A stretch of DNA of 64,000 nucleotides from Parcubacteria group bacterium M10-OD1-1 (GTDB taxonomy: Bacteria; Patescibacteriota; Minisyncoccia; Moranbacterales; UBA2206). The DNA is taken from contig LSNL01000003.1 of the NCBI GenBank assembly GCA_003056145.1, positions 201,993-265,992 of the forward strand, read 5' to 3'. Position 1 is the stretch's first letter. Each line of letters starts with the position of its first letter. The notes under the pieces were generated by a model, which saw nothing but the letters and a program-made list of their open reading frames with translations, was not told where the DNA came from and searched no databases. Shown here piece by piece: positions 32,261 through 64,000 of the stretch. The translations under genes were made by a program, and so were the position numbers.

Positions 32261-33688
32261 ATGAAAAAATCAGAATTATTTTTTAGTGCTGTTCAGGTCT
32301 TAATTGATTTTTTAATGATTATTTTGGCAGCCACTTCTGCTTATTATATTAGAAATGTTCCAGAAATATTAGCTTTAAAATCAAAACTTTATAATTTTTC
32401 TTTCCACAATTATATCCAAATTGTGTTAATTGTAGTGCCATTCTTCTTAATCATTTACGCGTTGGAAGGTCTTTACGATATTAGAGCTACTAGAAAATTT
32501 TGGCAAGAAGCTGTAAAAATATTTTCGGCTACTTCTATTGGCTTAGTGATAATTATTGTTGCTATATTCTTAAAACGAGAATGGTTTTCTTCCCGTTTCG
32601 TTATTTTGGCTGGTTGGATGTTGGTTACTTTTTACGTTGTTTCGGCTAGATATTTTGTGCATCTTATTCAAAAATGGTTATTAAGAAATAAAGGAATTGG
32701 TATACACAGGCTTTTATTGATTGGTAGAAACGGGAAAATTAGTACTATTGCTAAATTTATTTTACAAAATCCTAATCTTGGTTATAAAGTTATTGATCAG
32801 ATTAATACGGCCAGTGTACACTTAATTAAGCAAATAAAGAAGGAAAGGGGAATTGACGATATAATTTTGTGTGAACCTTCAATTACTGATGCGGAACAAG
32901 AGAAGTTAATTGATTTCTGCTCCATTCATAATATTAAGTATCAATATATTCCAACTACTCTACAAACTTCTAAATTTGAGATAGGTGTTTTAAATGGAGA
33001 GCCGTTAATTGAAGTTAAAAATACTCCCTTAGAAGGTTGGGGAAAAATTTCTAAGAGAATTTTTGATATAGTGATTTCTGCACTAGGAATTATTCTAGCG
33101 TCGCCAATAATGTTATTAGTGGCGATAGCTATTAAATTAGATGATGGCGGTCCAATTATCTATAAAAATGAGAGGATTGGTAACGATGGAAAAAAATTCT
33201 TAGTCTATAAATTCAGATATTTAAAACAAAATTGTTGTATTTCTAAAGACAATCCAAAGCTAGAAGAAGCCTTAAATTTAGAAAAAAAACTAATCAAGAA
33301 GCAAAGTGTTCGGAAAGGACCTCTCTATAAAATTAAAAATGACCCTAGAAAAACTATAACGGGAAACTTTATTGAAAAATATTCCATTGATGAATTACCG
33401 CAATTTTTCAATGTTCTCTTTGGATCAATGAGTATGGTTGGTCCACGTCCTCATCAAAAAAGAGAAGTAGAAAAATATATGGAATATCATAGAAGGTTAT
33501 TAACTATTAAACCAGGAGTAACGGGTATGGCACAAGTTTCTGGACGTTCTGACTTAGATTTTGAAAATGAATATAAATTAGATTTATTTTATATTGAAAA
33601 TTGGTCGTTAAAACTAGATATTCAGATATGTCTCAAAACTTTTGGAGTGTTATTTAGAAAAAGAAAAAATATTTCTTCTCAATCTTAA
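32261..33688 (+). CDS. polyprenyl-phosphate sugar phosphotransferase (WbaP/CpsE 'bacterial sugar transferase' family); initiating enzyme of the glycan locus
   Basis: 4 N-terminal TMs and C-terminal 'ISKRIFDIVISALGIIL...KLDDGGPIIYKNERIG...KFRYL...DELPQFFNVLFGSMSMVGPRPH' domain. Confidence 0.85.
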   Translation: MKKSELFFSAVQVLIDFLMIILAATSAYYIRNVPEILALKSKLYNFSFHNYIQIVLIVVPFFLIIYALEGLYDIRATRKFWQEAVKIFSATSIGLVIIIVAIFLKREWFSSRFVILAGWMLVTFYVVSARYFVHLIQKWLLRNKGIGIHRLLLIGRNGKISTIAKFILQNPNLGYKVIDQINTASVHLIKQIKKERGIDDIILCEPSITDAEQEKLIDFCSIHNIKYQYIPTTLQTSKFEIGVLNGEPLIEVKNTPLEGWGKISKRIFDIVISALGIILASPIMLLVAIAIKLDDGGPIIYKNERIGNDGKKFLVYKFRYLKQNCCISKDNPKLEEALNLEKKLIKKQSVRKGPLYKIKNDPRKTITGNFIEKYSIDELPQFFNVLFGSMSMVGPRPHQKREVEKYMEYHRRLLTIKPGVTGMAQVSGRSDLDFENEYKLDLFYIENWSLKLDIQICLKTFGVLFRKRKNISSQS

Positions 33689-33890
33689 ACTAATTAAAGA
33701 TAAGAATAGTTTAGTTTTTTATAAACTTGACCAAAGCTGACAAGAAAGTTAATCTGAATAAGTAGAAATTAACTATGACAATGAAAATTAATAATACAAC
33801 AATTTGGTTTTTCTTTTATTTGTTCTTTACTGAGCAAGAAGGCCATTTTGTTTTTGCGAAAAAAGATTAAATAAATTTTTTCCTAAAAAT

Positions 33891-33918
33891 AAACTGGTCT
33901 GATGACCAGTTTTTTTTG
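33891..33918 (+). terminator. intrinsic terminator
   Basis: Stem aaactggtc/gaccagttt with tgat loop, followed by TTTTTTT. Confidence 0.65.
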
Positions 33919-33975
33919 TTCTTTCAATTTAAGAGTATCTTCACTAATTAACAATTAAAACAGGGGGAGAAGGCT

Positions 33976-34200
33976 ATGAATTTAAAACGAGCTAAGAAGA
34001 TTAAAGAAGAAATTGCTGAAATTGTAGATGATTTTCCTTATGTAGTTTTAGAATTTTTTCTTGACTCGGGAATAAGAGTAAGTGGTAGCTACACTAAATC
34101 ATTGGAGGGCACGAGTCTTCCGTGGATAATTTTAAATGAAAATTATCCACTTAATTTGAACGAAGTGGCTAGTGTTAAAATAGCAGATGATGACTTCTAA
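33976..34200 (+). CDS. hypothetical small acidic protein
   Basis: 74-aa ORF with strong SD AGGGGGAGAAGG. No recognisable motif. Confidence 0.4.
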   Translation: MNLKRAKKIKEEIAEIVDDFPYVVLEFFLDSGIRVSGSYTKSLEGTSLPWIILNENYPLNLNEVASVKIADDDF

Positions 34201-34285: not shown

Positions 34286-34954
34286 TTAGAGGGTAATCAA
34301 AATAAAAACTAAGAGAAAAGAAAGAAGAATAAATCCGAAACCAATAAAATTTAGGAAATAATGCTTTAGAAACCAAGGCTTGTATTGAGAAATTCTTTGA
34401 TTGAGTTCTTGAATATTTTGCCATAAATAATAGTTAAGATAGGCTGGACGCATAGCCAGTGATTGATTTACTATAACTTGATTGCCGATTGCTAGATATT
34501 TATTTTGAGGCATTGAATTTTTTATAATAAAAAGATAAGCGTGTTTAGATTTTGGTTTGGGATAAAAATGTAAATTTAAACAATAGATCTTTCCTTGGGA
34601 ATGGTTAATTCTAGAGAAGGCAAAATCAATAGTATCTTTGGATTTTAATGAATGTAATTTTAATTTAGAAGTTCTCAATAAATGAGAACAATCAGTTGAA
34701 GAAATCTTTAATTCTAGGGTTCCTCCATGGCTTACACGAGAATTACCGAATAAGATCCTTATCTGAGACAAACCATCATAATCAGCTTGAAATTTTTGTG
34801 TAATTCCTTGATCGGGGAGCTTTATCTTAGTTCCCTTCTCTACCGTCCAATGATTATCAGGAAAAGACCATTTTTGGTTAATTCCAGCTAAAATAATTCC
34901 AAAAAGAATAAGGAGAGAAATTAAAAAAATATTTTTTTTCAAAAGATAAAACAT
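34286..34954 (-). CDS. hypothetical membrane protein (N- and C-terminal TM, extracytoplasmic middle)
   Basis: 4-nt gap to the upstream GT-C-like gene on the same strand. Confidence 0.5.
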   Translation of the reverse strand: MFYLLKKNIFLISLLILFGIILAGINQKWSFPDNHWTVEKGTKIKLPDQGITQKFQADYDGLSQIRILFGNSRVSHGGTLELKISSTDCSHLLRTSKLKLHSLKSKDTIDFAFSRINHSQGKIYCLNLHFYPKPKSKHAYLFIIKNSMPQNKYLAIGNQVIVNQSLAMRPAYLNYYLWQNIQELNQRISQYKPWFLKHYFLNFIGFGFILLSFLLVFILITL

Positions 34955-34958
34955 AAGT

Positions 34959-36419
34959 TTATAAGTAAAAACGAGGGAGAATAAAATTAAAAATTATATA
35001 AAAACAAAAAGAAAACATTAAGATAAATCCAGTAAGAAGAATATTTTTAAAATAGCGCTCCTTTTTCAATAACATGCCCAAGCCAACAAAAACCAAAATA
35101 AGATGAGAAGCTAAATTAGGTAAGAAATATCTTCCGGGTGTGCCGAGAGTTAATCGATGGAAACTTATAAAAACTTTCCAATCGTAAGTCCGAATACCTA
35201 GCTGTAAGGCAATAATCATTAATAATAAAAAAATAATATATTTTTTATCGGGTAAATAATGAGGTATTTTTTTAGTCCAGAAAAATAAAACTAAACCTAG
35301 CACAGATAAGGTTTCTATCCAAAAAATTAAATTAGTAAAATTATGAGTAAGCCAATTACTCTTCCAACTTAAACTACCCCAATAAGTACGAGAAGATAAA
35401 GCAAAACGACCCATACTCAAGCTAGTATCAAGATATTTTTGTAAAGAGGAAAAAGTTTGAGTTGGAGTACCTTCGAAAGGCAAAAGTCCTCTTAGATTAT
35501 ACTGAGTGTTAGCTAGAAAAGTGAGAGTGATTAAAAAAACGAAAAAAAGAGATAAATAGTAGCCTAAATGTCGTTGGCGCTTTATTTTTTGATAGCTATG
35601 AAAAGCGATTAAAAAAATAAAAGCTATCAAAAGAACAATAGCTGTTCCTTTGGTTAATAAACCTAAGATTAGAGCAATCAGCATTAGAGTAAAATTTTTC
35701 CAGTTTAATCCTTGTTTTAAACTTAAAATGCCACCTAAAGTAAAAAGAAAAAAGAGAGGAATGAGTAAAACATCATAATTGATGTTAGTAAAATACATGG
35801 TAAATTTAGGCTGGAAAGCTAGTATAGCGCTTAAAATTAGGCTGTAGTCCCTTTTTAAACCGATATTAATAGCAATTAGGTAACTTAGGAAAACAGCCAG
35901 AGTACCCAAGAAAACAGAAAAAATTCTGATCAAATAAAATCTTACTAGAATATTACTACTAGAAAAAGTTTTTTCTATCCAAGAGGCGAGTGTATGATAA
36001 AGAGTATGGGTAGCGGTATCGGCTGGATAATAATAATTAAGGGGCTTCCATTGAGAAGCGCTGATAGAATTTTCATTTTGACCGATATAGCCAGGGACGA
36101 AATTGGCGGTATTATATAAACCTTTGCGAATTATATTAAGGTTGCTAGCTTCTCCAGCGTGGATTATTTCTTGGGAAAAATTATAATTCTCAATCTGTTT
36201 ATTTTTGTGTCCAATTCGGCGTTTGATTTTTTGAGCAGAAGGAACGCTGGGATAAGAAATGGATTGAATAGTATTATAGTGTCGGGCTTCATCTTGTCCA
36301 GTAAAAAGAGGATAAAGTGTAGCCAAAAAAACGCCTTTCAAAAAAAAGACACTTAAAATTAAAAGTAAAATAACTTTTGTTTTTTGGAAAGATTTTAATT
36401 TAAATAACCATTTTTGCAT
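34959..36419 (-). CDS. polytopic membrane protein, putative GT-C-fold glycosyltransferase (ArnT/PMT-like)
   Basis: ~12 TMs. Acidic 'TGQDEARHY' motif in the first extracytoplasmic loop, as in GT-C enzymes. Confidence 0.45.
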   Translation of the reverse strand: MQKWLFKLKSFQKTKVILLLILSVFFLKGVFLATLYPLFTGQDEARHYNTIQSISYPSVPSAQKIKRRIGHKNKQIENYNFSQEIIHAGEASNLNIIRKGLYNTANFVPGYIGQNENSISASQWKPLNYYYPADTATHTLYHTLASWIEKTFSSSNILVRFYLIRIFSVFLGTLAVFLSYLIAINIGLKRDYSLILSAILAFQPKFTMYFTNINYDVLLIPLFFLFTLGGILSLKQGLNWKNFTLMLIALILGLLTKGTAIVLLIAFIFLIAFHSYQKIKRQRHLGYYLSLFFVFLITLTFLANTQYNLRGLLPFEGTPTQTFSSLQKYLDTSLSMGRFALSSRTYWGSLSWKSNWLTHNFTNLIFWIETLSVLGLVLFFWTKKIPHYLPDKKYIIFLLLMIIALQLGIRTYDWKVFISFHRLTLGTPGRYFLPNLASHLILVFVGLGMLLKKERYFKNILLTGFILMFSFCFYIIFNFILPRFYL

Positions 36420-36762: not shown

Positions 36763-36945
36763 ATGAGTAGAAAATCTTTAGGGCAAAGAAGTGTTAGAAA
36801 ACTGGGTAAAGTCGGTGGCGGAACATCATATTCTGTTACTTTGCCAATTGAAATTATAAGAGAATTTAGGTGGAAAGAAGGTCAAAAACTTGTAATTAAG
36901 AAGTATGGAAAGAATAAAATTGTAATTGAGGATTGGAAAAAGTAA
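36763..36945 (+). CDS. AbrB/MazE-family (SpoVT_AbrB swapped-hairpin) small DNA-binding protein, 60 aa
   Basis: 'VRKLGKVGGGTSYSVTLPIEIIREFRWKEGQKLVIKKYGKNKIVIED' matches the AbrB-N pattern (R-K-[LV]-x-x-G-x-x-x-[IV]-P-x-E-[IL]-R-x-x-x-x-I-x-x-G-D-x-[LV]). Confidence 0.6.
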   Translation: MSRKSLGQRSVRKLGKVGGGTSYSVTLPIEIIREFRWKEGQKLVIKKYGKNKIVIEDWKK

Positions 36946-37127: not shown

Positions 37128-38060
37128 ATGAGAAAAAATGATTTTAAAATTTCAATCGTGATTCCAGTTCTCAATGAAGAATTAAATATTGCGGAGCTAT
37201 TTTCTAAATTGAAGCCATTTTTAGAAACATATTTTAATTACGAAGTAATTTTTGTTGATGATGGGAGTACTGATAATACCCTTAAAATTATTAACGATTT
37301 AAGAAATAAAAATGATAAGGTGAAATATCTTTCTTTTTCCAGGAATTTTGGACATCAAAATGCTCTTCGTGCTGGCATGCGATATACAACAGGGGGGTGT
37401 GTCATTTCAATGGATGCTGATATACAACATCCACCAGAATTAATCCCAAAAATGATTAAAAAATGGCAAGAAGGATATGAAATTGTTTATACTGTACGTA
37501 AGGATAGCAATAAAAATTCTTTTTTCAAGAAAAAAACATCGGATATTTTCTATGGTATACTGTCGAGGCTTTCCGATGTAAGAGTGCCTAAAGGTGCGGC
37601 GGATTTTCGTTTATTAGATCGTTCAGTAGTTGATATAATTTCTCAGTTAAAAGAAAATACATTATTCTTGCGTGGAATGATTGCATGGTTAGGGTTTAAA
37701 CAATATGCTATTGAATATAATCCCGGAGAGCGATTTGCTGGTGAGACTAAATATTCTATAAGAAAAATGGTATCCTTAGCATTAAATGGTATTACATCTT
37801 TCAGTATAAGACCACTAAGGTTGGCTACTTATTTAGGATTTACAATTGCCTCGCTATCTTTTTTATATGCGGCTTATGCAGTTTACCTTAAAATTTTTAC
37901 TGATAAAGTGATTTCTGGTTGGACATCAGTGCTAGTTAGTGTTTTATTCTTATCAGGCATTCAGCTGATAACGTTTGGAATCATGGGTGAATATATAGGA
38001 AAGTTATTTATAGAATCAAAAGGTCGTCCTAGCTATATAATAAAAGAAAAGAAGTTATGA
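37128..38060 (+). CDS. GT2 polyprenyl-phosphate glycosyltransferase (GtrB/ArnC/Dpm1-like) with two C-terminal TMs
   Basis: 'ISIVIPVLNEELNI...FVDDGSTDNT...DADIQHPPELIPKMI' and C-terminal TM pair. Confidence 0.8.
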   Translation: MRKNDFKISIVIPVLNEELNIAELFSKLKPFLETYFNYEVIFVDDGSTDNTLKIINDLRNKNDKVKYLSFSRNFGHQNALRAGMRYTTGGCVISMDADIQHPPELIPKMIKKWQEGYEIVYTVRKDSNKNSFFKKKTSDIFYGILSRLSDVRVPKGAADFRLLDRSVVDIISQLKENTLFLRGMIAWLGFKQYAIEYNPGERFAGETKYSIRKMVSLALNGITSFSIRPLRLATYLGFTIASLSFLYAAYAVYLKIFTDKVISGWTSVLVSVLFLSGIQLITFGIMGEYIGKLFIESKGRPSYIIKEKKL

Positions 38061-39373
38061 ATTTTTTTCAATCTAGCAAGAAAAATAAAATAATTTCTCT
38101 AATTATTTTTGTTGCTATCTTTTTTGCAATATTTTTTATCAATAATAAAACTCCAATTTATTCTGATGATTGGGCTTTTTATGTTTCTTATCAAAATCAA
38201 AGAATACAATCAGTCAACGATGTTTTTTCTTCGATAAAATATTTTTATTTGCATGTCAATGGTAGAAGCGTGGCTAATTTAATCGTTGTCTTATTCGCTT
38301 TTTTAGGGAAAAATATATTCAATTTTTTCAATACTTTAATGTTTATCCTCCTGGGTTGGGAAATTTATTTTTTTGCTAGTGACGGAAAAAAAATAAAACC
38401 TCTGGGACTACTGGCTGTATTTATTCTACTTTGGTTTTTAAGTCCTTCTCCAAATCAAACTCTTTTTTGGATGTGTGGAGCAGTAGTCTATTTATGGATG
38501 GCAGTACTTACTCTTCTATTTTTAATTCCGTTTCGCGGATTTTTTTTGAAAAATAAAAAATTTATAAAAGACAACCAGCTGGGTGTTTTTTTGATGTTTG
38601 TTCTTGGAATTTTAGTTGGAAATTCTCATGAAATTATAGTGCCAGCAGTGTTTCTAGTTATATTATTTGCTGGATATATTCTTTTTAAAAAAAGAAAGAA
38701 AATTTCAAAGTGGGCAATTAGTGGATTTATCGGGTTTATGATTGGTGCCATTATTCAATTCTTTGCACCAGGTAACTATGTAAAACTTAATCATACACTT
38801 GGTAGTAAAGGATTTTTCCAATTATCTTCAGGATTCCATCGGGTTCTAGAAAAAATATCGGCATATCAAATTGTTTTGTGGGAAATAGTTGGGGTGATAG
38901 TATTTCTATATGTAATTAATAAAATCTATTTCAAATTTAGAAAGAAAATTATGGATTCATTTATGCTATTATTAATAATAGTTGCTTTTTTTCTGGATGT
39001 TTTAGGAATATTTTTCCCCTACTTTCCGCCCAGGGCGTTTTTTTTCAGTAATGTAGCTTTAATAATTTTTATAAGTAGGTTTTTATTGAATAATGAATTT
39101 AAATTAGTAAAAACACTAGGTATAATTATTTTAATTCCAGCTTTTATTCTGTCTATGGAAACATCAATGAATAAAGCTAATATTTTATATAAACAGTATC
39201 AAAAGAGAGATGAGTCTATATTAAAACAAAAATTTCAAGGTAAACAAAATATAACGGTTAAAAAAATTAAAAGGGTTAAAAATAAAATATTACTCAATGA
39301 ACCTCTATTACCTCATTCTAAAAATGTTTGGGCTAGTCGATTCTACGGAGTAGATAGTATTAAATTAAATTAA
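38057..39373 (+). CDS. polytopic membrane protein, putative GT-C-like glycosyltransferase or polymerase
   Basis: ~11 TMs. 'IYSDDWAF' acidic motif after TM1. 4-nt overlap with upstream GT2. Confidence 0.4.
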   Translation: MNFFQSSKKNKIISLIIFVAIFFAIFFINNKTPIYSDDWAFYVSYQNQRIQSVNDVFSSIKYFYLHVNGRSVANLIVVLFAFLGKNIFNFFNTLMFILLGWEIYFFASDGKKIKPLGLLAVFILLWFLSPSPNQTLFWMCGAVVYLWMAVLTLLFLIPFRGFFLKNKKFIKDNQLGVFLMFVLGILVGNSHEIIVPAVFLVILFAGYILFKKRKKISKWAISGFIGFMIGAIIQFFAPGNYVKLNHTLGSKGFFQLSSGFHRVLEKISAYQIVLWEIVGVIVFLYVINKIYFKFRKKIMDSFMLLLIIVAFFLDVLGIFFPYFPPRAFFFSNVALIIFISRFLLNNEFKLVKTLGIIILIPAFILSMETSMNKANILYKQYQKRDESILKQKFQGKQNITVKKIKRVKNKILLNEPLLPHSKNVWASRFYGVDSIKLN

Positions 39374-39384
39374 ATTTTAAAAAT

Positions 39385-39714
39385 ATGCTTAATTACATAC
39401 TAATTTTATTAGGAATAATAACAAGTGCTTTGGCACAAGTGATGTTAAAAAAATCAAGCGAGTTTTCATTTTTTAAAGAATATAATTTCTTTATTTTCTT
39501 TATTTTGGGCGGATTGTTTTATATTATTTCTTTCGGTTTATATGCCTACATTTTAAAAATATTTGATATTAGTAAAATTAGTCCAGTAATGACTATTGGG
39601 GTAATGGTAATAGTTGTAGCATCTGGGATATTATTTTTTAAAGAAACTCTCTCATTAATTCAATCAGTTGGTATCATATTAGGTGTAATATCTATAATAT
39701 TAATTTTAAAATGA
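39385..39714 (+). CDS. small 4-TM SMR/DMT-like protein (ArnE/ArnF-like candidate polyprenyl-P-sugar flippase subunit)
   Basis: 109 aa, four TMs, 'LGIITSALAQVMLKK' resembles EamA/ArnE. Confidence 0.45.
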   Translation: MLNYILILLGIITSALAQVMLKKSSEFSFFKEYNFFIFFILGGLFYIISFGLYAYILKIFDISKISPVMTIGVMVIVVASGILFFKETLSLIQSVGIILGVISIILILK

Positions 39715-39722
39715 CATAACAA

Positions 39723-42815: not shown

Positions 42816-42959
42816 CAAATTATAATTTGTGGAACATCATATTTTATTACTTTGTCAGCTGACATTATTCGTGAGTTTGATTGGCGTGAAGGGCAGAAAT
42901 TAGTAGTGAAAAAATATGGAAAAGAGAAAGGGATAATAATTAAGGATTGGAAAGAGTAG
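42816..42959 (+). pseudogene. N-terminally truncated AbrB-like paralog (47 codons, no ATG), contiguous in-frame after the gmd TAG stop
   Basis: Encodes 'CGTSYFITLSADIIREFDWREGQKLVVKKYGKEKGIIIKDWKE', ~70% identical to the C-terminal 42 aa of the 36763 protein. Possible TTG/ATT starts only. Confidence 0.5.
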
Positions 42960-42976
42960 GCCATCTGATTTTTTTT

Positions 42977-55157: not shown

Positions 55158-56879
55158 TTATTTGAAGGCTTTTTTCCAAGTATAGACTTCGGAAATTTTT
55201 TGCATTTGATTGGTTATTTCTTTCTGTGATCTTTTCTGCCGAAGGGCTTTAGCTACATTTTTTTTAGGTTTCCAATAATCAACAGTCAAAGAACCAAATA
55301 CTTTTCTAGCTTGAAGTCTAAAATGTTTGCCAGGCTTTTTCTTCTTAATAGATTGATAAATCATAAAATAGTTACCTTTTTGATAAATAAGTTGACTGTT
55401 TATGGGTGCGTAATAATCAATGCCTCGTTTTCTTAAATGATACCAAAAAGCAGGAGCATATTCATGGAGAGTTTTTAAATAAACTGGATAATGATTTTTT
55501 TCGTATTTGGACTGAATATAATCAACAATTTCTAATTGTTGCTTGAGGGTTAAACGATTAGTATTGGGAAAAACATCTTCAGTTTCTAATTTCATTGGTT
55601 GAGTTTGAGCACGAGAGTAGTTTTTAAAAATTTTAGAAAGCTCTGTTAAATTTAAAAGGACTAGTGTTAAAGAAATTAAAATAATAATAACAAGCTGGCG
55701 ACGGTCTTTTTTGGGATAAATACTTTCAAATACTAAGCCAAGGAGAATGAAGGCTAAAGGAGTATTAAGTAGAAAAAAGCGAGGATAAAATCGGTAACCG
55801 CTATGCAAAAGAGCGAGATAATAGAAAAAAGAGAAACCAAGCCAGATGGAAATTAGCTGAAGAAATGATTTTTTATTTTCATTTTTTTCAAAATAAGTCT
55901 TTCTAAAAAGAAGGTAAATTGCTAAAAAGAAGATTAGAATACTTAGAATTTGGAGAATTCTTCCATTGATTAATAAATCTTTTAAATGATTTATTTGATT
56001 TCTAGCTTGGGCTTTTCCATTAATTTCATCTTGACCAGTCAGAACAAGTAAGCTTTCTAAAGCATTGAAACGAATATCACGAACCAAGATTTTTCCTAAA
56101 TGTTTATTTACTCTTGTTGTTCGAGTAAATTTTTTTTCAAAAAACTTAAGGTTTTCTCCATTGGTTTTTAGGTCATTAACAATCATGGGAGAATAAATAA
56201 TCAAGAAAATAGCGATAGCTCCAAGCCAAGTTTTAATCTTGAATTTTGGTTTTTTTAAAATAAGAAAAAATACTACAATTGGAGGAACTACAAAAAAAGC
56301 ATTAAAGTGAATTTGGGTAATTATAGCAATAGAAAGTACAGAAGCTAAAAACCACCAATCTCGTTTTTTTTCGTTTCGATTGATACTTTTTAACAAGAAG
56401 TAAAAGGAAAGGATGATAAAAAAAGGTAGGATATTGGGACTCCAAGAAAAACGAGAATAAAGCACTAGATAGGTAGAAGAAGAAAAAATAGTTAATAGTA
56501 GAAGCGAGATAGTAGTAGAAAAGTATTTTTTCAAAAATAAATAGAAAAGAGGAATAGCTAATAAAGAAGTGATAAGGATTAGCATTGCGTGTCCAGTAGG
56601 AGTATTGCCAAAAATCCTAGCACTTAAATATTCTAGATAATAAAAAGCTGGACCAAGACGCAAAGCACGTCCTCCGCCAGCTGTTGGTCCCAAGAGAGGA
56701 AGATTGGCGATGCCTTTTTCTATTCCTTGAGAAACTAGGATGGTGTCATAAGTTTGATCAATCTCAAAATGAAGCCAATCGGAAAAATGGTATGTTCTTA
56801 GGAAAAATCCTAGCGTAAAAATTAAAACTAGAAAAATTATTTTCCCTTGGGAAAGTTTTATTTTTTGAAAAATATTCAT
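55158..56879 (-). CDS. polytopic membrane protein (573 aa), putative GT-C glycosyltransferase (ArnT/PMT-like)
   Basis: ~13 TMs. 'HFSDWLHFEIDQTYD' acidic loop after TM1. Confidence 0.45.
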   Translation of the reverse strand: MNIFQKIKLSQGKIIFLVLIFTLGFFLRTYHFSDWLHFEIDQTYDTILVSQGIEKGIANLPLLGPTAGGGRALRLGPAFYYLEYLSARIFGNTPTGHAMLILITSLLAIPLFYLFLKKYFSTTISLLLLTIFSSSTYLVLYSRFSWSPNILPFFIILSFYFLLKSINRNEKKRDWWFLASVLSIAIITQIHFNAFFVVPPIVVFFLILKKPKFKIKTWLGAIAIFLIIYSPMIVNDLKTNGENLKFFEKKFTRTTRVNKHLGKILVRDIRFNALESLLVLTGQDEINGKAQARNQINHLKDLLINGRILQILSILIFFLAIYLLFRKTYFEKNENKKSFLQLISIWLGFSFFYYLALLHSGYRFYPRFFLLNTPLAFILLGLVFESIYPKKDRRQLVIIILISLTLVLLNLTELSKIFKNYSRAQTQPMKLETEDVFPNTNRLTLKQQLEIVDYIQSKYEKNHYPVYLKTLHEYAPAFWYHLRKRGIDYYAPINSQLIYQKGNYFMIYQSIKKKKPGKHFRLQARKVFGSLTVDYWKPKKNVAKALRQKRSQKEITNQMQKISEVYTWKKAFK

Positions 56880-57017: not shown

Positions 57018-57353
57018 TTGCAGGAGTTAGGGAAGAAAAAAAATATGATAAATGATATTGGAATTGGAAGTGTTAAAAATGAGTGGATACTAAACACCTT
57101 TTTTCTTACGTTTGCTCTAGCTCTTTCTATTTATATATGGAAAAGAAGAAAAAATCTGCTCATGGGAATTTTAATTTTTTCCTTACTAGGGAATTTGGTA
57201 TTTTATACTGACTCAGGATCTCTTTTTTACAGCATATATCATCTTAAATGGATTGTTAAATTTACTCTATGGTATTGGCCTTGGATAAATCTAGTTTTAT
57301 TAATTTTTATAATTATAAATTTTATCAAAAACAAATATGTTAAAACAAAATAA
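57018..57353 (+). CDS. hypothetical small membrane protein (3 TM)
   Basis: ORF with three hydrophobic helices. Overlaps the next gene start by 17 nt. Weak support. Confidence 0.3.
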   Translation: MQELGKKKNMINDIGIGSVKNEWILNTFFLTFALALSIYIWKRRKNLLMGILIFSLLGNLVFYTDSGSLFYSIYHLKWIVKFTLWYWPWINLVLLIFIIINFIKNKYVKTK

Positions 57354-60189
57354 AATCAAGAAAGTAACTATTATTATATCAATAATAGTTTTTATTTTTT
57401 TTCTCTTTAATTTTAGCAATCTCAGCTTTCTAAAAATAAAAAATATCGCCGATGCTGAAGAATTTAATAATTTTCCATATAGAGATAATTCTGGATCTAT
57501 CAGCATCATAGGAAATGCGATTTGGACAAAAGATACTCCAGATTTAGTTTTTGATGAGCCAGTATATATAGAGAATGGAGCTACTCTTACTATTAAAAAA
57601 GGCACGGTAATTAAATTTAAAAAAGCTATTGAATCTAATGCTCCTCCTGGAATTTTTGTTACTAACGGAAAAATTATAGCCAATGGAACTCAGGGCGAAC
57701 ATATTAAATTTACTTCTGATCAGGATGATAGCGGTTTCGTTTTAAACTTTTATGACCGAGGAGAAAGAACTTCATTTTTACGTTATGTTGAAATTTCTAA
57801 AGGCGGTAATACGGAAAAACCAATTCTTTTAGGACATTTAAAATCATCAGGCTTTTTTATTAACACAGTATATGCTTATGACAGTTCACATCCTGTGCCA
57901 GAAACAGGAGAAACTGTATTAATAGGGGCTGGGAAAGTACATATTGAAAATTCCTTTTTTCATAATAATAAAACTACAGATATTCTTATTCGAGACAGTG
58001 CAAAATATGACAATGATTATAACCAAATAGGCACATATTCTCCTGAGGTTGAGGTGATAAATTCTAATTTTTCCAAAAAGAGTTCAATTTATTCTAATAT
58101 AGCTTGCTCTAAAAATAATAATGGTAATCCTGACAAACAATGCGCTAAAAGAGTTTACTTAAAAGATAATTGGTATGGTGACTCAGCTGGTCCGACAGAA
58201 AAACAGGATAGCCGTTACAAAGGAGCATTCATTGGTGGAATTTATACGCTAGATTCTTTTCGAAAAAATAAGTTAGTAGTTGATCCAGTAATCATTATTC
58301 CAGGAATCATGGGATCAGCTAGAGTTTTCGATAAATGGAAGTTAGACCCAATTTTACATACATATGATAATTTAGTTGAATCATTAAAAGAGAATAGTTA
58401 CGAAGAAAACAAAAATCTTTTTGAATTTCCGTATGAATGGCGGGACAGCAATATAGTAACAGCTGGTTTATTGAAAAATAAGATTCAGGAAGTTAAATCT
58501 AAAACTAAAATTTCTAAAGTTGATTTAGTGGCACATTCTATGGGCGGGTTAGTTGCTCGTTATTACATTGAGAGTTCAAATTATCAAAATGATGTTGAAA
58601 AACTAATAACCTTAGGAACTCCTCAGTATGGAGCACCAGAAAGCTATCTTGAGTGGGAAGCAGGAGAAGGATTTTTTACTAGAGAAGAAAAAATAGGTAA
58701 ATTTATTTTTACTGTTGAAGCACATGAAGCAGGCTACAACAGTCTTAAAAAATATATACAATCGCGTATAAAATCAGTCGGGGAGCTTTTGCCTGACTAT
58801 AATTATCTCAAAGAAGCTTCAACTGGAAAGATGCGATCGTATCCAAATAACTATCCTAAAAATATTTTCTTAGATTTTCTAAATAAGCAAAGTAATCTTA
58901 AAAATTTAAAAAGCGTAAACTTTTTTAATATTATTGGAAAGATTAATTCAGAAAGAACTATTAAATCTTTTGATGTTGTTGATAGCACTAAAGATGGCAA
59001 ATGGGAAAATGGTATGCCCAAAAATTATTATGATGTTACTACAAATCAAGGTATTGAGTATGGCAAAGGTGATGGTACTGTTCCACTGGAAAGTGCTGAG
59101 GGAATTGCGTCTACGGAGAAAGAAATGCTAAGTTCATCTCATATAGATCTTCCTACTGAAGCTCAATGCGATGTTATCATCAAATTAACTGGACGAACGA
59201 ATTGTAATTATATCAATACTGTAAAACGAGTTATACATATTTTAATATTTGGAGTTTTTTCTCCCATTGACATTCAAGTTGTGGCACCGGATGGAAAGAG
59301 GGTGGGCAAGGATTTTGATAATCTCGGAAAGACCCTGAATGAAATTTCCGGAGCATATTACACAGGATATGAAACTGACAATGAATTCTTGACTATTCCT
59401 AACCCTCAAGACGGAGAATATAAGGTTATTACTCAAGGAACAGGGGCAGGGGATTACAAAGTAGCAATAGCTAATATTTCCGAAGATAGAAACAATCCTG
59501 GGCAAGCCACAGAAGTAACTGCGGAAATTACTGGAACAACAGAAGAGGGAAAAATTGAAACAACTCCAGCAGAAATAACTGAAAACAAGATAACCGTAGC
59601 ATCTCAAGACACCATTCCGCCTACCATAAAAATAACTTCTCCAAAAAATAAAACTTATCTAAATAATCAAAGCTTAAAAATAATTTATACTGCTAATGAT
59701 AATTTAACCATTCCTGATAAAATTAAAACAACTTTAATTTATGATAATCAGCTGTTAACTTCAAAAAAAATTGATTTATCCTTAGAACATCTAGGAAGGC
59801 ATCATTTAAAAATTATAGCCCAAGATGAAGCTAAAAATAAAATAGCAAGAAAAGTTAACTTTAAGATAGCAACTAATTTAAAAGCTATTGGTCAGAATAT
59901 TTATCATTATCGAAAACTGAAACTTATTAAAAATCAAATGGCAGCTACTATCTTAGAAGAAAGAATAAGCCATATTCAAAGAATAGAAGAGCTGTCGCGA
60001 CGTTTAGAAAAAAAATGGTTTCCTGCTTGGTGGAAGAAAAGAATTAATCGTCATTTTCAATTACAAAAGGATCAGCAGATTAAATTTTTAATTAAAATGA
60101 TTATTAAAAGTCACTATTTACAAAAAAATATTACTAAATCAGTGAGAATTATTTTAGTAGAAGATTTGAGAGACTTAGAAAAAATATAA
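57337..60189 (+). CDS. large secreted/surface protein: signal-anchor, parallel beta-helix-like region, Bacillus LipA-like alpha/beta-hydrolase (lipase/esterase) domain, beta-rich region, C-terminal coiled coil
   Basis: N-terminal TM 'VTIIISIIVFIFFLF'; beta-helix-like 'NGATLTIKKGTVIKFKK'; oxyanion 'IIPGIMGS', nucleophile elbow 'VAHSMGGLVARYY' (A-x-S-x-G), 'GDGTVP' Asp and 'SSSHIDL' His. Confidence 0.65.
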   Translation: MLKQNKIKKVTIIISIIVFIFFLFNFSNLSFLKIKNIADAEEFNNFPYRDNSGSISIIGNAIWTKDTPDLVFDEPVYIENGATLTIKKGTVIKFKKAIESNAPPGIFVTNGKIIANGTQGEHIKFTSDQDDSGFVLNFYDRGERTSFLRYVEISKGGNTEKPILLGHLKSSGFFINTVYAYDSSHPVPETGETVLIGAGKVHIENSFFHNNKTTDILIRDSAKYDNDYNQIGTYSPEVEVINSNFSKKSSIYSNIACSKNNNGNPDKQCAKRVYLKDNWYGDSAGPTEKQDSRYKGAFIGGIYTLDSFRKNKLVVDPVIIIPGIMGSARVFDKWKLDPILHTYDNLVESLKENSYEENKNLFEFPYEWRDSNIVTAGLLKNKIQEVKSKTKISKVDLVAHSMGGLVARYYIESSNYQNDVEKLITLGTPQYGAPESYLEWEAGEGFFTREEKIGKFIFTVEAHEAGYNSLKKYIQSRIKSVGELLPDYNYLKEASTGKMRSYPNNYPKNIFLDFLNKQSNLKNLKSVNFFNIIGKINSERTIKSFDVVDSTKDGKWENGMPKNYYDVTTNQGIEYGKGDGTVPLESAEGIASTEKEMLSSSHIDLPTEAQCDVIIKLTGRTNCNYINTVKRVIHILIFGVFSPIDIQVVAPDGKRVGKDFDNLGKTLNEISGAYYTGYETDNEFLTIPNPQDGEYKVITQGTGAGDYKVAIANISEDRNNPGQATEVTAEITGTTEEGKIETTPAEITENKITVASQDTIPPTIKITSPKNKTYLNNQSLKIIYTANDNLTIPDKIKTTLIYDNQLLTSKKIDLSLEHLGRHHLKIIAQDEAKNKIARKVNFKIATNLKAIGQNIYHYRKLKLIKNQMAATILEERISHIQRIEELSRRLEKKWFPAWWKKRINRHFQLQKDQQIKFLIKMIIKSHYLQKNITKSVRIILVEDLRDLEKI

Positions 60190-60306: not shown

Positions 60307-61251
60307 ATGGAACAAAAACCATACCTGTCTATCGTGGTACCTCTATATAATGAAGAGGATAATGTTAAAGAATTACATTCAAAAATTTTACAAGCCTGTC
60401 GAAAATTAAATAAGGATTTTGAAATTATTTTTATTGATGATGGCTCTAGTGACGAAACGGTTAAAAATTGTCAAAAACTTTCGCCTCTTAAATTAATTAA
60501 ATTTCGTCGTAATTTTGGACAAACTGCTGCTTTTGACGCAGGAATTAAAGAAGCTAAAGGAGAGATTGTTATTACGATGGACGGAGATTTACAAAATGAT
60601 CCAGCTGATATTCAGTTACTTTTAGATGAGATGAAAAAAGGTTATGATGTGGTTTCAGGTTGGCGATGGCAAAGAAAAGATAGTTTTACTAAGAAGTTTT
60701 TTTCTCGTGGAGCTAATTTGTTGCGGAAAATCTTAATTCACGATCATATCCATGATAGCGGATGTAGCTTGAAAGCTTACAAACGAAAGTGTTTTCAAGG
60801 AATTGACCTCTTTGGTGAGATGCATAGATTTATTCCAGCTATTTTAGAATTAGAAGGTTACAAAGTAGGAGAAACTAAAGTTTCCCATTACCCACGAGTT
60901 AGTGGAGTAACGAAATATAGTTGGAATAGAGCCATCAAGGGTTTTGTTGATATGATTGCAGTTTGGTTTTGGAGAAAATATTCCAATCGTCCTATTCATC
61001 TTTTTGGAGGTGCAGGAATAATTTTTTCTTTAACGGGAATTATAATTTTAATTTGGATGGTGACTGAAAAAATATTTTTTGGTGCATCTCTGGCTGAACG
61101 AATATGGCCACTTATCGGAGTCTTTTTAATTCTTGTCGGAATCCAACTTTTTGTGTCTGGTTTATTGGCGGATATTATAGTAAAGAATTACTATAAGAAT
61201 CAACATCGGATGAATTATACTATTAGCGAAATAATTACCAGAGAAGACTAG
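60307..61251 (+). CDS. GT2 polyprenyl-phosphate glycosyltransferase (GtrB/ArnC-like) with C-terminal TMs
   Basis: 'LSIVVPLYNEEDNV...IFIDDGSSDET...TMDGDLQNDPADI' plus two C-terminal TMs. Confidence 0.8.
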   Translation: MEQKPYLSIVVPLYNEEDNVKELHSKILQACRKLNKDFEIIFIDDGSSDETVKNCQKLSPLKLIKFRRNFGQTAAFDAGIKEAKGEIVITMDGDLQNDPADIQLLLDEMKKGYDVVSGWRWQRKDSFTKKFFSRGANLLRKILIHDHIHDSGCSLKAYKRKCFQGIDLFGEMHRFIPAILELEGYKVGETKVSHYPRVSGVTKYSWNRAIKGFVDMIAVWFWRKYSNRPIHLFGGAGIIFSLTGIIILIWMVTEKIFFGASLAERIWPLIGVFLILVGIQLFVSGLLADIIVKNYYKNQHRMNYTISEIITRED

Positions 61252-61555: not shown

Positions 61556-62893
61556 ATGAGAATTGCAATTATTGGTACTGGATATGTGGGCTCTGTAACA
61601 GGAGTTTGTTTAGCGGAAATGGGAAATATGGTTGTTTGTGTAGATAATAATAAAGAAAAAATTGCCCAATTTCGTAAAGGCGAAGCCCCTTTTTCAGAAA
61701 AGGGATTAGATGAATTGATCAAAAGAAATTTGAAAAATCAAACGCTTCTTTATACGACTGATTTTAAACAGGCGGTGAAAAAAAGTGATATGGTTTTTAT
61801 TGCAGTGGGAACGCCTTCAGGAGAAGATGGAAGTGCAGATCTGAGTTACGTTATTGCAGTGGCTCAGTCTATTGGACAAGTAATTGATCATCAACTAATT
61901 ATTGTTGATAAATCAACGGTGCCAGTGGGAACGGCTGAGTTAGTAAAAAAAACTATTTTTGCAGAGCAGAAGAAACGGGGAGTTAATTTCCCTTTTACGG
62001 TAGTTAGTAATCCTGAATTTTTGGCTCAAGGAACGGCGGTTAAGGATTTTATGGAGCCTAGCCGAGTAGTAGTAGGGGCGGATAATCCTGAAGATATTGA
62101 AATAATGAGGGAACTTTATGCTCCGTTTATGCGGAGAGAAGGGCGTTTTTATTCTATGAATCCTCAAACGGCGGAAATGGTGAAGTATGCAGCTAATAGT
62201 TTCTTAGCGGCTAAAATTTCTATTAATAATGAATTGGCCAACATCTGTGCTTTAATGGGAGCTGATTTTGATCAAGTGCGAAGAGCAATGGGAGCTGATC
62301 CAAGGATTGGTGAGGCGTTTATGTACGCCGGGCCTGGTTTTGGAGGGAGTTGTTTCCCTAAAGATGTCAGAGCTTTGATTAAGATGGCTCAAGAGAGAAA
62401 TTATGAAGCGGAGATGTTTTTGCAGACTTTGAAAACTAATGAAGAGCAGAAGCATCTTTTAGCTAAAATAGTTCAAAGGTACTTTCAGTATTTTAATCAA
62501 AGCTTAAAAGAGAAGGTTTTGGCTGTCTGGGGCTTAGCTTTTAAAGCAGGGACAGATGATATGCGGGAATCATCGGCTTTAACTGTTGTCCAAGATTTAA
62601 TTGAAGCTGGGGCTAAAATTCAAGTCTATGATCCTGAGGCTATGAAAACAGCTCAACTCCCAGAGTATTTTGGTGATAATCCAGCTATTAAATACTGCAA
62701 TAATAAGTACGAGGCTTTGGAAAAAGCGGAGACCTTATTAATTGTTACGGAATGGAAAGAATTCCGGACGCCGGATTTTGAGGAAATGAAGAAAAGATTG
62801 AGGCATCCGGTAGTAGTAGATGGTCGGTTATTGTATAATCCCGATAAAATGAAGAATAGAGGATTTGTCTATTACTCTGTTGGACGTCCTTAA
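61556..62893 (+). CDS. ugd: UDP-glucose 6-dehydrogenase (nucleotide-sugar dehydrogenase family)
   Basis: 'MRIAIIGTGYVGSVTGVCLAEMGNMVVCVD' NAD-binding N-terminus and catalytic 'GGSCFPKDVRAL'. Confidence 0.85.
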   Translation: MRIAIIGTGYVGSVTGVCLAEMGNMVVCVDNNKEKIAQFRKGEAPFSEKGLDELIKRNLKNQTLLYTTDFKQAVKKSDMVFIAVGTPSGEDGSADLSYVIAVAQSIGQVIDHQLIIVDKSTVPVGTAELVKKTIFAEQKKRGVNFPFTVVSNPEFLAQGTAVKDFMEPSRVVVGADNPEDIEIMRELYAPFMRREGRFYSMNPQTAEMVKYAANSFLAAKISINNELANICALMGADFDQVRRAMGADPRIGEAFMYAGPGFGGSCFPKDVRALIKMAQERNYEAEMFLQTLKTNEEQKHLLAKIVQRYFQYFNQSLKEKVLAVWGLAFKAGTDDMRESSALTVVQDLIEAGAKIQVYDPEAMKTAQLPEYFGDNPAIKYCNNKYEALEKAETLLIVTEWKEFRTPDFEEMKKRLRHPVVVDGRLLYNPDKMKNRGFVYYSVGRP

Positions 62894-62922
62894 TTAAAGA
62901 CAAACAGAGCTTAAACTTAGCA

Positions 62923-62957
62923 AGCCACAAGAAAATTCTCTTGTGGCTTTTTTTATT
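62923..62957 (+). terminator. intrinsic terminator after ugd
   Basis: 8-bp stem gccacaag/cttgtggc with 8-nt loop, followed by TTTTTTTATT. Confidence 0.65.
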
Positions 62958-62991
62958 GTTTTTAATTTTTATTTTTGCTACTATAAAATAG

Positions 62992-64000
62992 ATGAGAATT
63001 TTATTTTTTAATTACGAATATCCACCCTTAGGGGGCGGAGCAGCTAACGCTACCGCTTATCTTTTGCGTGAATATGCTAAAATTAAAGATCTTAAAATTG
63101 ATTTAGTAACTTCTTCAACAAATAGCCAGTACCAACAAGAAAAAATAGGTGAAAATATTATTATCCATAAATTACCTATTGGAAAAAATAAAGAAAATCT
63201 TCATTTTCAATCGCAAAAAGAATTATTAGTTTATTCTTACAAGGCTTATTTTTTTTCTAAAAAATTGATTAAAAAAAACCAATATTATTTAACTCATTCT
63301 TTTTTCTCAATTCCTTGTGGACTGCTATCTTTATTGTTTAAGTGGCAATTTGATATTCCTTTTATTATCTCTCTTCGTGGGGCAGACGTACCAGGTTACG
63401 CGGAAAGATTTACTTGGATTTATAAAATTTTAACTCCGCTAATAAAATTTATTTGGAAAAAAGCTGATAAAGTAGTAGCTAACTCTCAAGGATTAAAAGA
63501 TTTAGCTTTAAAAACTAATCCACAACAAAAAATAGAAATTATTTATAACGGTATTGATACGGAGAAGTTTCAACCTTTAGAGCTTTCTAAAATTTCTAAC
63601 GATATTCAAGAAAAATTTATTATTACCTCTGGAGCTTCTAGAATAACTTCCAGAAAAGGTCTTAAATACTTACTCCAATCGGTTCAAATATTGTCTCAAA
63701 AATATCCGCGAGTTTATTTAGAAATTATGGGAGATGGAGATCAAAAAAGCGAATTGGAAAAATTAGCGCAAGATTTAAAAATTAATGAGCGCGTAAAGTT
63801 CTTCGGTCGGATTCCGCGGGAAAAAACTGTTCAATATTATCAGAGAGCCAGTGTATTTGTTTTGCCTTCGTTTAATGAAGGAATGTCTAACGCTATGTTA
63901 GAGGCTTTAGCCACTGGTTTGCCGATTATAGCCACTAAAACTGGAGGAGCAGAGGAGCTCATTATGGAGGGAAAAAATGGATTTATAATTAAAATGAAAA
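62992..64000 (+). CDS. GT4 glycosyltransferase, 3' end beyond window
   Basis: ATG at 62992, open to the window end. 'MRILFFNYEYPPLGGGAANATAYLL' and 'PSFNEGMSNAMLEALATGLPIIATKTGGAEELIMEGKNGFII' GT4 motifs. Absent from the ORF track because no stop codon lies in the window. Confidence 0.8.
   Translation, partial: MRILFFNYEYPPLGGGAANATAYLLREYAKIKDLKIDLVTSSTNSQYQQEKIGENIIIHKLPIGKNKENLHFQSQKELLVYSYKAYFFSKKLIKKNQYYLTHSFFSIPCGLLSLLFKWQFDIPFIISLRGADVPGYAERFTWIYKILTPLIKFIWKKADKVVANSQGLKDLALKTNPQQKIEIIYNGIDTEKFQPLELSKISNDIQEKFIITSGASRITSRKGLKYLLQSVQILSQKYPRVYLEIMGDGDQKSELEKLAQDLKINERVKFFGRIPREKTVQYYQRASVFVLPSFNEGMSNAMLEALATGLPIIATKTGGAEELIMEGKNGFIIKMK

Follow-up and report, generated by a model that had tools for sequence, protein, structure and literature searches.

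We analysed 64,000 nucleotides of contig LSNL01000003.1 (hereafter the window, meaning this whole stretch), in which nearly all open reading frames (ORFs) from position 32261 to the end are glycan genes, forming one locus that starts after the RNase P RNA gene rnpB. Judged from sequence comparison and structure models, this is likely to be the main envelope-glycan locus of a bacterium of the candidate phyla radiation (CPR), in which a cytoplasmic oligosaccharide route is combined with multi-component transmembrane glycosylation. The evidence consists of gene content, family and fold assignments, operon adjacency and synteny conserved in relatives. The locus is a multi-component transmembrane glycosylation locus of a known kind, and the mechanism itself is not new; new here are the fold-level support for two orphan membrane glycosyltransferases of the GT-C fold, the identification of modules of the Gtr and Gac types, the finding that the locus reaches beyond the window, the conserved synteny, and the question of the role of one of the orphans, encoded at 47224. 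Genes are called below by their lower coordinate in the window.

Three distinct predicted polyprenyl-phosphate sugar synthases

Three glycosyltransferase family 2 (GT2) genes of the synthase type are spread over the locus, as follows.

37128-38060, + strand: GtrB/PgfS-like polyprenyl-phosphate hexose synthase (310 amino acids, GT2 with two C-terminal membrane helices)
54458-55147, - strand: GacI/PpgS-like soluble synthase of the polyprenyl-phosphate N-acetylhexosamine (HexNAc) type (229 amino acids, no predicted membrane helix)
60307-61251, + strand: ArnC-like polyprenyl-phosphate sugar synthase (314 amino acids, GT2 with two C-terminal membrane helices)

All three are homologous to characterised synthases over their full length, beyond the shared N-terminal GT-A half. 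Residues 6-306 of 37128 align with Synechocystis GtrB sll0501 (PDB 5EKP) at an E-value of 8.7e-84 and with ArnC at 1e-47, and its best NCBIfam model is PgfS (294.6 bits, full length). Residues 7-310 of 60307 align with ArnC (E 1.6e-43) and GtrB (E 1.6e-33) in the PDB, and the NCBIfam ArnC model matches at 179.6 bits over its full length. For 54458, the NCBIfam PpgS model scored 148 bits, with positions 2-217 of its 226 aligned, and AglJ scored 114 bits, with PDB matches to DPMS (E 3e-14) and ArnC. On the other hand, processive GT2 families (PgaC, NodC, chondroitin synthase) match just the first ~110 residues of the three proteins, and an ordinary processive GT2 identity is rejected in view of the end-to-end alignments with GtrB, ArnC and PpgS. 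Hydropathy places the C-terminal membrane helices in 37128 and 60307, and the helix-free 54458 is paired with a DUF2304 protein described below. The three sequences are 28-29% identical to one another, indicating three distinct subfamilies rather than recent duplicates. Since all three score below the NCBIfam equivalog cut-offs (295 of 500 for PgfS, 180 of 529 for ArnC and 148 of 370 for PpgS), their sugars cannot be named.

Five large GT-C-like membrane proteins

Five large polytopic proteins are encoded in the window part of the locus, and one of them has a small partner.

34959-36419, - strand: PMT_2-type GT-C (486 amino acids; PMT_2 35.1 bits, cut-off 26.1; PMT 31.1 bits, cut-off 22.7; about nine membrane helices; QDE after helix 1)
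34286-34954, - strand: bitopic protein of 222 amino acids with a membrane helix at each end, conserved partner of 34959
38057-39373, + strand: GtrC-family membrane glycosyltransferase (438 amino acids; PF19528, also DUF6056 or GT_STM0557_N, 318 bits over the full length; SDD after helix 1)
39723-41282, + strand: GT-C without a Pfam family (519 amino acids, HLTDDHE motif)
47224-49413, + strand: GT-C-fold membrane protein of a small family without a Pfam model (729 amino acids; last gene of the wzx operon; VDGDG loop; invariant K253-E254)
55158-56879, - strand: PMT_2-type GT-C in a GacL-like position (573 amino acids; PMT_2 42.5 bits, cut-off 26.1; EIDQTYD motif)

By family matches and models, all five are GT-C-like. 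PMT_2 matches 34959 and 55158, both of which also match the PMT protein-mannosyltransferase model, PF19528 matches 38057, and the structure models of 39723 and 47224, given in the next section, have only GT-C enzymes among their PDB matches at E<=1e-3. In view of these PMT_2 and PF19528 matches and structural matches, a Wzy, ligase or transporter identity was rejected. The family of 38057 is named after Salmonella STM0557, which is gtrC of the gtr LT2_I cluster (PMC2909390). A PDB sequence search with 38057 gave no match even at an E-value of 10; when a single DUF6056 protein served as the query for the contig scan, no relatives were found, and the alignment-based scan did find relatives.

The sequence-only reading that preceded this work had named these same three synthases and five polytopic proteins, and in both respects it was right. 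It had also placed an acidic motif in the first extracytoplasmic loop of each polytopic protein. In all five, an acidic motif does lie in the loop that follows core helix 1 (QDE in 34959, SDD in 38057, TDDHE in 39723, EIDQTYD in 55158 and VDGDG in 47224), and for the first four the proposal stands. For 47224 it fails in its literal form, as the VDGDG loop comes after the fourth membrane helix, being preceded by three extra N-terminal helices and a K/R-rich helix (seven K/R), an arrangement that would put the loop on the outer side. The location of the motifs outside the membrane is predicted solely on the positive-inside rule.

The 222-amino-acid protein had no Pfam or NCBIfam match even at an E-value of 10, and it always adjoins a small PMT_2-type GT-C. 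The pair that it forms with 34959 is adjacent in two separate lineages, L045/L051 and L058 (L045 2249-4392 and L058 4147-6120; 38-52% and 44-59% identity). Conceivably it serves as a partner that binds the acceptor, a type speculated on in PMC8035078.

Two orphan GT-C families

Neither 39723 nor 47224 matched any Pfam model (even at E<=10), any NCBIfam model or any PDB sequence (even at an E-value of 10), and neither meets the gathering threshold of PMT_2 (PF13231), to which their links are indirect. Structure models were compared by Foldseek. The AlphaFold model of 39723 (pLDDT 93.5, pTM 0.93) matched, at E<=1e-3, only GT-C structures: ArnT best (E 1.4e-6), then DPY19, ALG12, ALG9 and PglB, followed by AftA and Pmt4; Pmt1/2 was listed too. 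The model of 47224 (pLDDT 85.5) also matched ArnT best (E 7.6e-7, TM-score 0.57), then STT3 (TM-score ~0.40), AftA and AglB, and all its PDB matches at E<=1e-3 are GT-C proteins. In the Foldseek lists for both models, transporters appeared only at E>0.2 and TM-scores below 0.2, and no WaaL or SEDS protein was present.

Profile comparison by hhalign gave a probability of 82.7% for a link between the 39723 family and 55158, a PMT_2 protein, and a weak 29% for one with 34959. The comparisons of the 39723 family with the 47224 family, of the 47224 family with 55158, and of the 39723 family with 38057 were not significant. In distant proteins belonging to the 47224 family, PMT_2 is matched at the corresponding position.

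Among 47 aligned homologues of 39723, D36 of the HLTDDHE motif is invariant and D35 is at least 90% conserved, and RFRPFY and KESF motifs were also found. The family occurs in CPR bacteria, Bacteroidota, Cyanobacteria, Clostridia, Proteobacteria and one archaeal metagenome-assembled genome (MAG). An orthologue of the 37128 synthase (GtrB), 36-69% identical, lies within ~2 kb of the 39723-family gene in 16 of 35 loci from several phyla. Two of those 16 loci, L008 and L028, also keep a small SMR-like gene between gtrB and the GT-C gene (77% and 64% identity to 39385 of the window, respectively), and L008, a Moraniibacteriota genome, keeps the whole four-gene block and a 47224 homologue.

The 47224 family is small, with 341 representatives found by profile among 1.84 billion proteins. 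D134 is at least 90% conserved in 28 homologues. Gene neighbourhoods were compared in 19 metagenome loci and in three contigs obtained by exact look-up, with one contig common to both sets. In the comparison loci, the 47224-family gene sits after a variable run of glycosyltransferase and methyltransferase genes; a Pfam-annotated Wzx lies upstream in L043, L044 and L045 (L057 is the counterpart of L044 in the metagenome set), and a convergent GT2 gene lies directly downstream in 13 loci, with L045/L051 counted once as one contig. Further downstream, a GacI-like gene, a DUF2304 gene or both are found in the six longest loci (L043, L044, L045/L051, L056, L057 and L064). 47224 is the most diverged of the shared genes, at 36-43% identity compared with 51-85% for its neighbours. 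Because of its fixed place at the end of the wzx operon, 47224 appears to be the best candidate for the step after flipping.

Gtr-like and Gac-like modules

The synthase and GT-C genes are grouped in modules with two small membrane proteins.

39385-39714, + strand: SMR/EamA-type small membrane protein (109 amino acids; EamA 30 bits, cut-off 28.2; SMR 22.3 bits, cut-off 23.7; ArnF 17 bits)
53928-54275, - strand: DUF2304 small membrane protein, GacJ-like partner of the soluble synthase (PF10066, 57.8 bits)

The first module, from 37128 to 41282 on the + strand, is tightly packed and consists of the synthase, the GtrC-type GT-C, the SMR/EamA-type protein and the 39723 GT-C. The stop of 37128 overlaps the start of 38057 (38057-38060), and the gtrB-like and GtrC-type genes are predicted to be co-transcribed. 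The module resembles the three-component Gtr systems (GtrA/GtrB/GtrC) for O-antigen glucosylation of Shigella and Salmonella phages and chromosomes in its full-length GtrB homologue, in the GtrC-family gene that follows it, and in the order of synthase, transferase and small membrane protein within one operon. It differs from them in that the SMR/EamA-type protein stands in place of the GtrA-family flippase, that a second, unrelated GT-C (39723) shares the operon, and that the host is a CPR bacterium rather than a lipopolysaccharide-bearing enterobacterium, so that an O-antigen acceptor cannot be assumed. SMR drug exporters need an acidic residue in helix 1. Helix 1 of 39385 has none, and for this reason the protein would, on weak evidence, fit a lipid-sugar flippase better than a drug pump. 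It is a candidate polyprenyl-phosphate-sugar flippase, standing where gtrA would.

The second module comprises 55158, 54458 and 53928, which are consecutive on the - strand with gaps of 10 and 182 nucleotides and make up a GacI/GacJ/GacL-type gene set; it leads into the GT2-FkbM fusion, two genes of glycosyltransferase family 4 (GT4) and a GT2 gene on the same strand. A GacI-like gene next to a DUF2304 gene is seen not only here but also in L023, L043, L044, L045, L056 and L057. A ~230-residue soluble GT2 whose best NCBIfam model is PpgS, the adjacent DUF2304 partner, a PMT_2 GT-C in the same operon and a Wzx-type flippase elsewhere in the locus are shared with the GacI/GacJ/GacK/GacL system for the side chains of the group A Streptococcus carbohydrate and with mycobacterial PpgS/Rv3632/Rv3779; GacJ and Rv3632 are proteins that we take to belong to DUF2304. 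In contrast to those systems, Wzx is encoded at a distance of ~10 kb on the opposite strand, where it shares an operon with cytoplasmic glycosyltransferases, and the rhamnan backbone genes (Rgp/Gac A-G) of the Gac system are absent here. The sugar of 54458 may also differ, since its scores are far below the equivalog cut-offs. The arrangement of GacI with a small membrane partner, and the scheme of multi-component transmembrane glycosylation in general, have been reviewed (PMC8035078).

A third module contains the ArnC-like 60307, ugd and a GT4 gene cut by the window end. ArnC-like 60307, the SMR-like protein resembling ArnE/F, and ArnT as the best structural match of both orphan GT-Cs recall the ArnC/ArnE-F/ArnT system. 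However, ArnA, ArnB and ArnD are absent from the window, and the likeness is one of fold and family, not of orthology.

With regard to the overall design, several synthase/GT-C pairs with few flippases are also found in Lactococcus lactis (CsdAB, CsdCD and CsdEF with the shared flippase CflA, acting on rhamnan, pellicle and lipoteichoic acid) and in the CsbB/GtcA/YfhO and GtlA/GtlB systems of Listeria and Bacillus, where GT-Cs of PMT_2 type or without a family likewise carry out monosaccharide decoration outside the membrane (PMC8035078). Unlike in those systems, the genes are here packed in a single locus of >39 kb that also encodes a WbaP/Wzx oligosaccharide pathway, the ratio of GT-C to synthase genes is at least 8 to 3, and YfhO-type enzymes and GtrA-type flippases are lacking.

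Genes for a lipid-linked oligosaccharide

The remaining glycan genes belong to the cytoplasmic route.

32261-33688, + strand: WbaP/EPS-type polyprenyl-phosphate hexose-1-phosphate transferase, the initiator (475 amino acids; Bac_transf 205 bits with CoA_binding_3; TIGR03025 368 bits, cut-off 296; about five membrane helices)
41838-42815, + strand: GDP-mannose 4,6-dehydratase Gmd (PF16363 409 bits; TIGR01472 411.3 bits, under the cut-off of 415)
42947-44332, + strand: Wzx-type (MOP) flippase (Polysacc_synt 91 bits, Polysacc_synt_3 61 bits; about 11-12 membrane helices; the NCBI start is 30 nucleotides later)
44329-45045, + strand: S-adenosylmethionine (SAM)-dependent methyltransferase (Methyltransf_23 60.6 bits)
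45051-46193 and 46190-47212, + strand: two GT4 (Glycos_transf_1 51 and 54.5 bits)
49385-50143, - strand: GT2 (Glycos_transf_2 100.6 bits)
50140-51300 and 51278-52444, - strand: two GT4 (Glycos_transf_1 130 and 111 bits)
52441-53931, - strand: GT2 fused to an FkbM-type methyltransferase (Glycos_transf_2 112 bits, Methyltransf_21 46 bits, TIGR01444 53.5 bits)
61556-62893, + strand: UDP-glucose 6-dehydrogenase, Ugd/TuaD-like (all three UDPG_MGDP_dh domains; TuaD 465 bits, TIGR03026 450 bits)
62992-64000, + strand: truncated GT4, whose frame is still open where the window ends (a GT4 of 386 amino acids on the contig)

The wzx operon on the + strand runs through Wzx, the methyltransferase, two GT4 genes and 47224, and converges on the - strand operon with an overlap of 29 nucleotides between the terminal genes. 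Family matches bore out the WbaP-like initiator, gmd, ugd, Wzx, the SAM methyltransferase and the GT2-FkbM fusion that had been read from the sequence earlier, as they did the DUF2304-like partner and, at low scores, the ArnE/F-like small protein (39385). The eight GT2/GT4 enzymes counted at that time are in fact seven, namely four complete GT4, one cut GT4, one GT2 and the GT2-FkbM fusion, or ten when the synthases are included. The earlier list also lacked the 222-amino-acid bitopic protein, a MazE/AbrB-like ORF of 60 amino acids and an LCAT/PGAP1-like hydrolase of 950 amino acids.

Of the Wzx/Wzy pathway, the initiating phosphoglycosyltransferase and Wzx are present. A Wzx-dependent repeat-unit polymer had been proposed; a Wzx-exported lipid-linked oligosaccharide can be deduced from these genes, but the repeat-unit polymer cannot, as neither Wzy nor Wzz was found among the window ORFs scanned.

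Extent, conservation and host of the locus

An RNase P RNA of class A was found at 31880-32208 (136 bits), and the genes to its left are housekeeping genes (ribosomal proteins, RpoA, EF-Ts, three tRNAs, IspG, a release factor, SecA, SecDF, and phenylalanyl- and valyl-tRNA synthetases), in agreement with the earlier proposal that a glycan locus follows rnpB as its left edge. On the right, the locus runs at least 7 kb past position 64000, as seen on the matching contig LSNQ01000010.1 (GCA_003056095.1).

L005 12685-20945 (equivalent to ~62990-71250), past the window end: the rest of the GT4, an LPG_synthase_TM (MprF-flippase-like) protein, a GH28/pectate-lyase-like beta-helix protein and three more PMT/PMT_2 genes

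55158 has two paralogues among the three PMT genes (31-42% identity). With the extension counted, the ~39 kb of the whole locus encode eight or more GT-C proteins and three synthases. The GT4 gene at the window end starts at 62992, one nucleotide away from the 62991 expected from the NCBI contig (window 62893-62992 versus L005 12587-12685), which suggests a 1-nucleotide indel in the intergenic spacer or else that window and contig belong to separate assemblies of one strain.

Many independent metagenome contigs show this gene order as well, which indicates that the clustering did not arise by chance. The G+C content of the window is ~30%; within the locus it dips to 24-25% over ~44-50 kb, compared with 29-33% elsewhere. 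This dip falls exactly over the methyltransferase, the two GT4 genes and 47224, and coincides with the part of the locus that varies in gene content among relatives. A recent foreign island was considered and rejected, because synteny is kept in relatives despite the drop in G+C. For what was earlier termed an island, the sequence comparisons favour a lineage-conserved locus with a variable central cassette over a recent insertion.

The best valyl-tRNA synthetase homologues bearing a specific taxon name all come from Candidatus Moranbacteria, the Parcubacteria group or the Patescibacteria group (57-68% identity), and the closest genome with the 39723 family is a Moraniibacteriota MAG. On these grounds of homology, the host is a CPR bacterium of Moranbacteria/Parcubacteria-like type.

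Proposed pathway and alternative explanations

Taken together, two routes would operate in this locus. In the cytoplasmic route, the WbaP-type enzyme 32261 would load hexose-1-phosphate on polyprenyl phosphate at the cytoplasmic face, GT4 and GT2 enzymes would extend this primer with sugars including those derived from Gmd and Ugd, two methyltransferase domains would modify the product, and Wzx (42947) would flip the lipid-diphosphate-oligosaccharide outward. In the transmembrane route, each of the three GT2 synthases would make one polyprenyl-phosphate-monosaccharide, with the sugar, the flippase and the acceptor of each assigned here only as most probable: the carrier of 37128 most likely bears a hexose, and that of 54458 with its DUF2304 partner most likely a HexNAc. 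These carriers would be flipped, for which 39385 is a candidate in the case of the 37128 carrier, and GT-C enzymes on the outer face would pass single sugars to envelope acceptors. As they share its operon, 38057 and 39723 would take the product of 37128, and 55158 would take that of 54458, its gene being adjacent in one operon; 47224 may act directly after Wzx export. By analogy with the streptococcal and lactococcal systems, our best guess is that the acceptors are in the first place the Wzx-exported glycan and other wall-associated glycopolymers, with surface proteins as the second choice. The interpretation given in the earlier reading is thereby largely supported, although the acceptors that it offered as examples, protein O-glycosylation or a lipoglycan, are likewise guesses.

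Several findings weigh against this interpretation. There are at least eight GT-Cs, the extension counted, to three synthases, and the donors for 34959, 47224 and the three genes outside the window are not paired. The GT-C membership of 38057 is supported, at the sequence level, by a single line of evidence, its match to the PF19528/GtrC family, and the Foldseek TM-scores of the orphans are moderate (0.45-0.58). The scores that link 39385 to EamA and SMR are low (30 and 22 bits), and no GtrA-family (PF04138) flippase was found among the scanned locus ORFs, which comprised most of those of at least 90 amino acids and two shorter ones. Furthermore, neither Wzy, Wzz, WaaL nor LCP was detected by Pfam and NCBIfam among the scanned window ORFs or in the loci of three relatives, so that the oligosaccharide may stay short and be passed on en bloc, unless a gene outside the window supplies the missing enzyme.

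It is possible, though on the whole doubtful, that the GT-Cs mainly glycosylate surface proteins (pilins, S-layer proteins or other exported proteins) directly from polyprenyl-phosphate sugars, as in actinobacterial Pmt or Streptococcus mutans Pgf. PgfS, the best model for 37128, is the synthase of the Pgf protein-glycosylation system, the PMT model matches 34959 and 55158, Pmt4, Pmt1/2 and DPY19 are among the structural matches of 39723, and the lack of Wzy in the window suggests that no long polymer is made here. However, the PgfS score is far below its cut-off, the window yielded no candidate gene for a glycoprotein with Ser/Thr-rich repeats, and in monoderm bacteria the more frequent substrates of PMT_2 enzymes are teichoic acids and wall polysaccharides (Table 2, PMC8035078). 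Protein glycosylation and the decoration of envelope glycans are not mutually exclusive. A further question concerns 47224, which might handle the Wzx-flipped lipid-diphosphate-oligosaccharide as a polymerase, ligase or oligosaccharyltransferase, replacing a Wzy-, WaaL- or LCP-type enzyme, rather than transfer single sugars. Its invariable place at the end of the wzx operon with variable glycosyltransferase and methyltransferase genes between, the failure to detect Wzy, Wzz, WaaL and LCP in the window and the three relatives' loci, the oligosaccharyltransferases STT3 and AglB among its structural matches, and its divergence, which is usual for specificity-determining enzymes, are all consistent with such a role. 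But its closest fold is that of the single-sugar enzyme ArnT, with STT3 well behind in TM-score, which weighs against a post-Wzx polymerase or ligase; moreover, 47224 is without a WWDYG-type motif and a large C-terminal domain, its distant relatives are ordinary PMT_2 proteins, and a Wzy or ligase could sit elsewhere in the genome. We consider this role rather unlikely.

Two other explanations are far weaker. The suggestion that the ArnC-like synthase, Ugd and an ArnT-like PMT_2 protein modify a membrane lipid with aminoarabinose and so confer resistance to cationic peptides draws on the full-length match of 60307 to ArnC next to ugd and on the presence of an ArnE/F-like small protein and ArnT-fold enzymes. 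Nevertheless, homologues of ArnA, ArnB and ArnD (formyltransferase/decarboxylase, aminotransferase and deformylase) are absent from the window, the ArnC score is far under its cut-off, the SMR-like gene lies in the GtrB operon and not beside 60307, and CPR bacteria are not known to make lipid A. A complete Arn pathway was rejected, the window holding only ArnC-like, SMR-like and ArnT-fold genes and Ugd, and lipid modification of this type is very improbable. The locus could finally be taken for a plain Wzx/Wzy capsule or O-antigen cluster, whose polytopic proteins would be transporters, Wzy or O-antigen ligases and whose short GT2s would be processive or Leloir enzymes. The sequences of 39723 and 47224, which have no Pfam or NCBIfam assignment, would by themselves leave room for this, but all PDB matches of both models at E<=1e-3 are GT-C proteins with neither WaaL nor SEDS among them, 34959, 55158 and 38057 exceed the PMT_2 or PF19528 thresholds, and the synthases match GtrB, ArnC and PpgS over their full length. 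The earlier reading had named this case as its own refutation; neither half of it was borne out, and we consider this explanation hardly credible.

Other features of the window

Two further sets of genes lie within the limits of the locus.

36763-36945, + strand: MazE/AbrB-fold ORF of 60 amino acids (MazE_antitoxin 30.8 bits, cut-off 24.7), standing by itself in a gap of 700 bp ahead of the gtrB-like operon
57018-60189, + strand: three-helix membrane protein of 111 amino acids with no known family, and an exported hydrolase of 950 amino acids whose start overlaps the end of the 111-amino-acid gene

No toxin gene adjoins the MazE/AbrB-fold ORF, which could be a small regulator of the gtrB-like operon and whose membership in the locus is uncertain. 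The 950-amino-acid protein has an LCAT/PGAP1-like alpha/beta-hydrolase core (LCAT 66 bits, PGAP1 41 bits), a weak immunoglobulin-like match and an N-terminal hydrophobic helix. CPR bacteria are, as far as is known, generally unable to synthesize lipids of their own, so that a secreted phospholipase/acyltransferase could matter for lipid uptake from the host.

With regard to transcription signals, only a few useful terminator-like hairpins were found, among them 33891-33912 (bidirectional, after the WbaP-type gene) and 62922-62949 (after ugd), and a scan of the window for promoters gave promoter-like sites at chance level only. In the housekeeping part, IspG of the MEP isoprenoid pathway (GcpE, 509 bits; 16334-17386, + strand) lies 15 kb upstream of the locus, which is relevant in that the whole locus depends on the supply of polyprenyl phosphate. 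SecD (22767-24467, + strand) has a PPIC-type peptidyl-prolyl isomerase domain inserted between its P1 subdomains (Rotamase, 67 bits, residues 145-235), and an ORF of 656 amino acids at 488-2458 (+ strand) had no Pfam match at E<=1e-4.

Significance

CPR/Patescibacteria have genomes of ~1 Mb and are thought to live attached to other cells. To our knowledge, almost nothing is known of their surface chemistry. Multiple copies of Dol-P-Man-synthase-like genes have been remarked on, without analysis, in CPR genome papers (PMC4736985, PMC6031116), and a literature search combining CPR and GT-C returned nothing. In the present genome, >39 kb are given to envelope glycans, and the lipid-carrier route that acts outside the membrane appears to be used at least three times. 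Two GT-C families missed by current profile libraries are added, of which the 39723 family is widespread beside gtrB in Bacteroidota, Clostridia, Proteobacteria and CPR bacteria and should improve the annotation of 'hypothetical' membrane proteins in glycan loci. More speculatively, and with a rather small chance of being right as a whole, the lineage-restricted GT-C-fold family of 47224 might perform the post-Wzx step as a polymerase, ligase or O-oligosaccharyltransferase in Moranbacteria-like CPR bacteria, with at least eight GT-Cs diversifying the surface for attachment to the host. The locus thus offers concrete candidates for how CPR bacteria may build and vary their surface.

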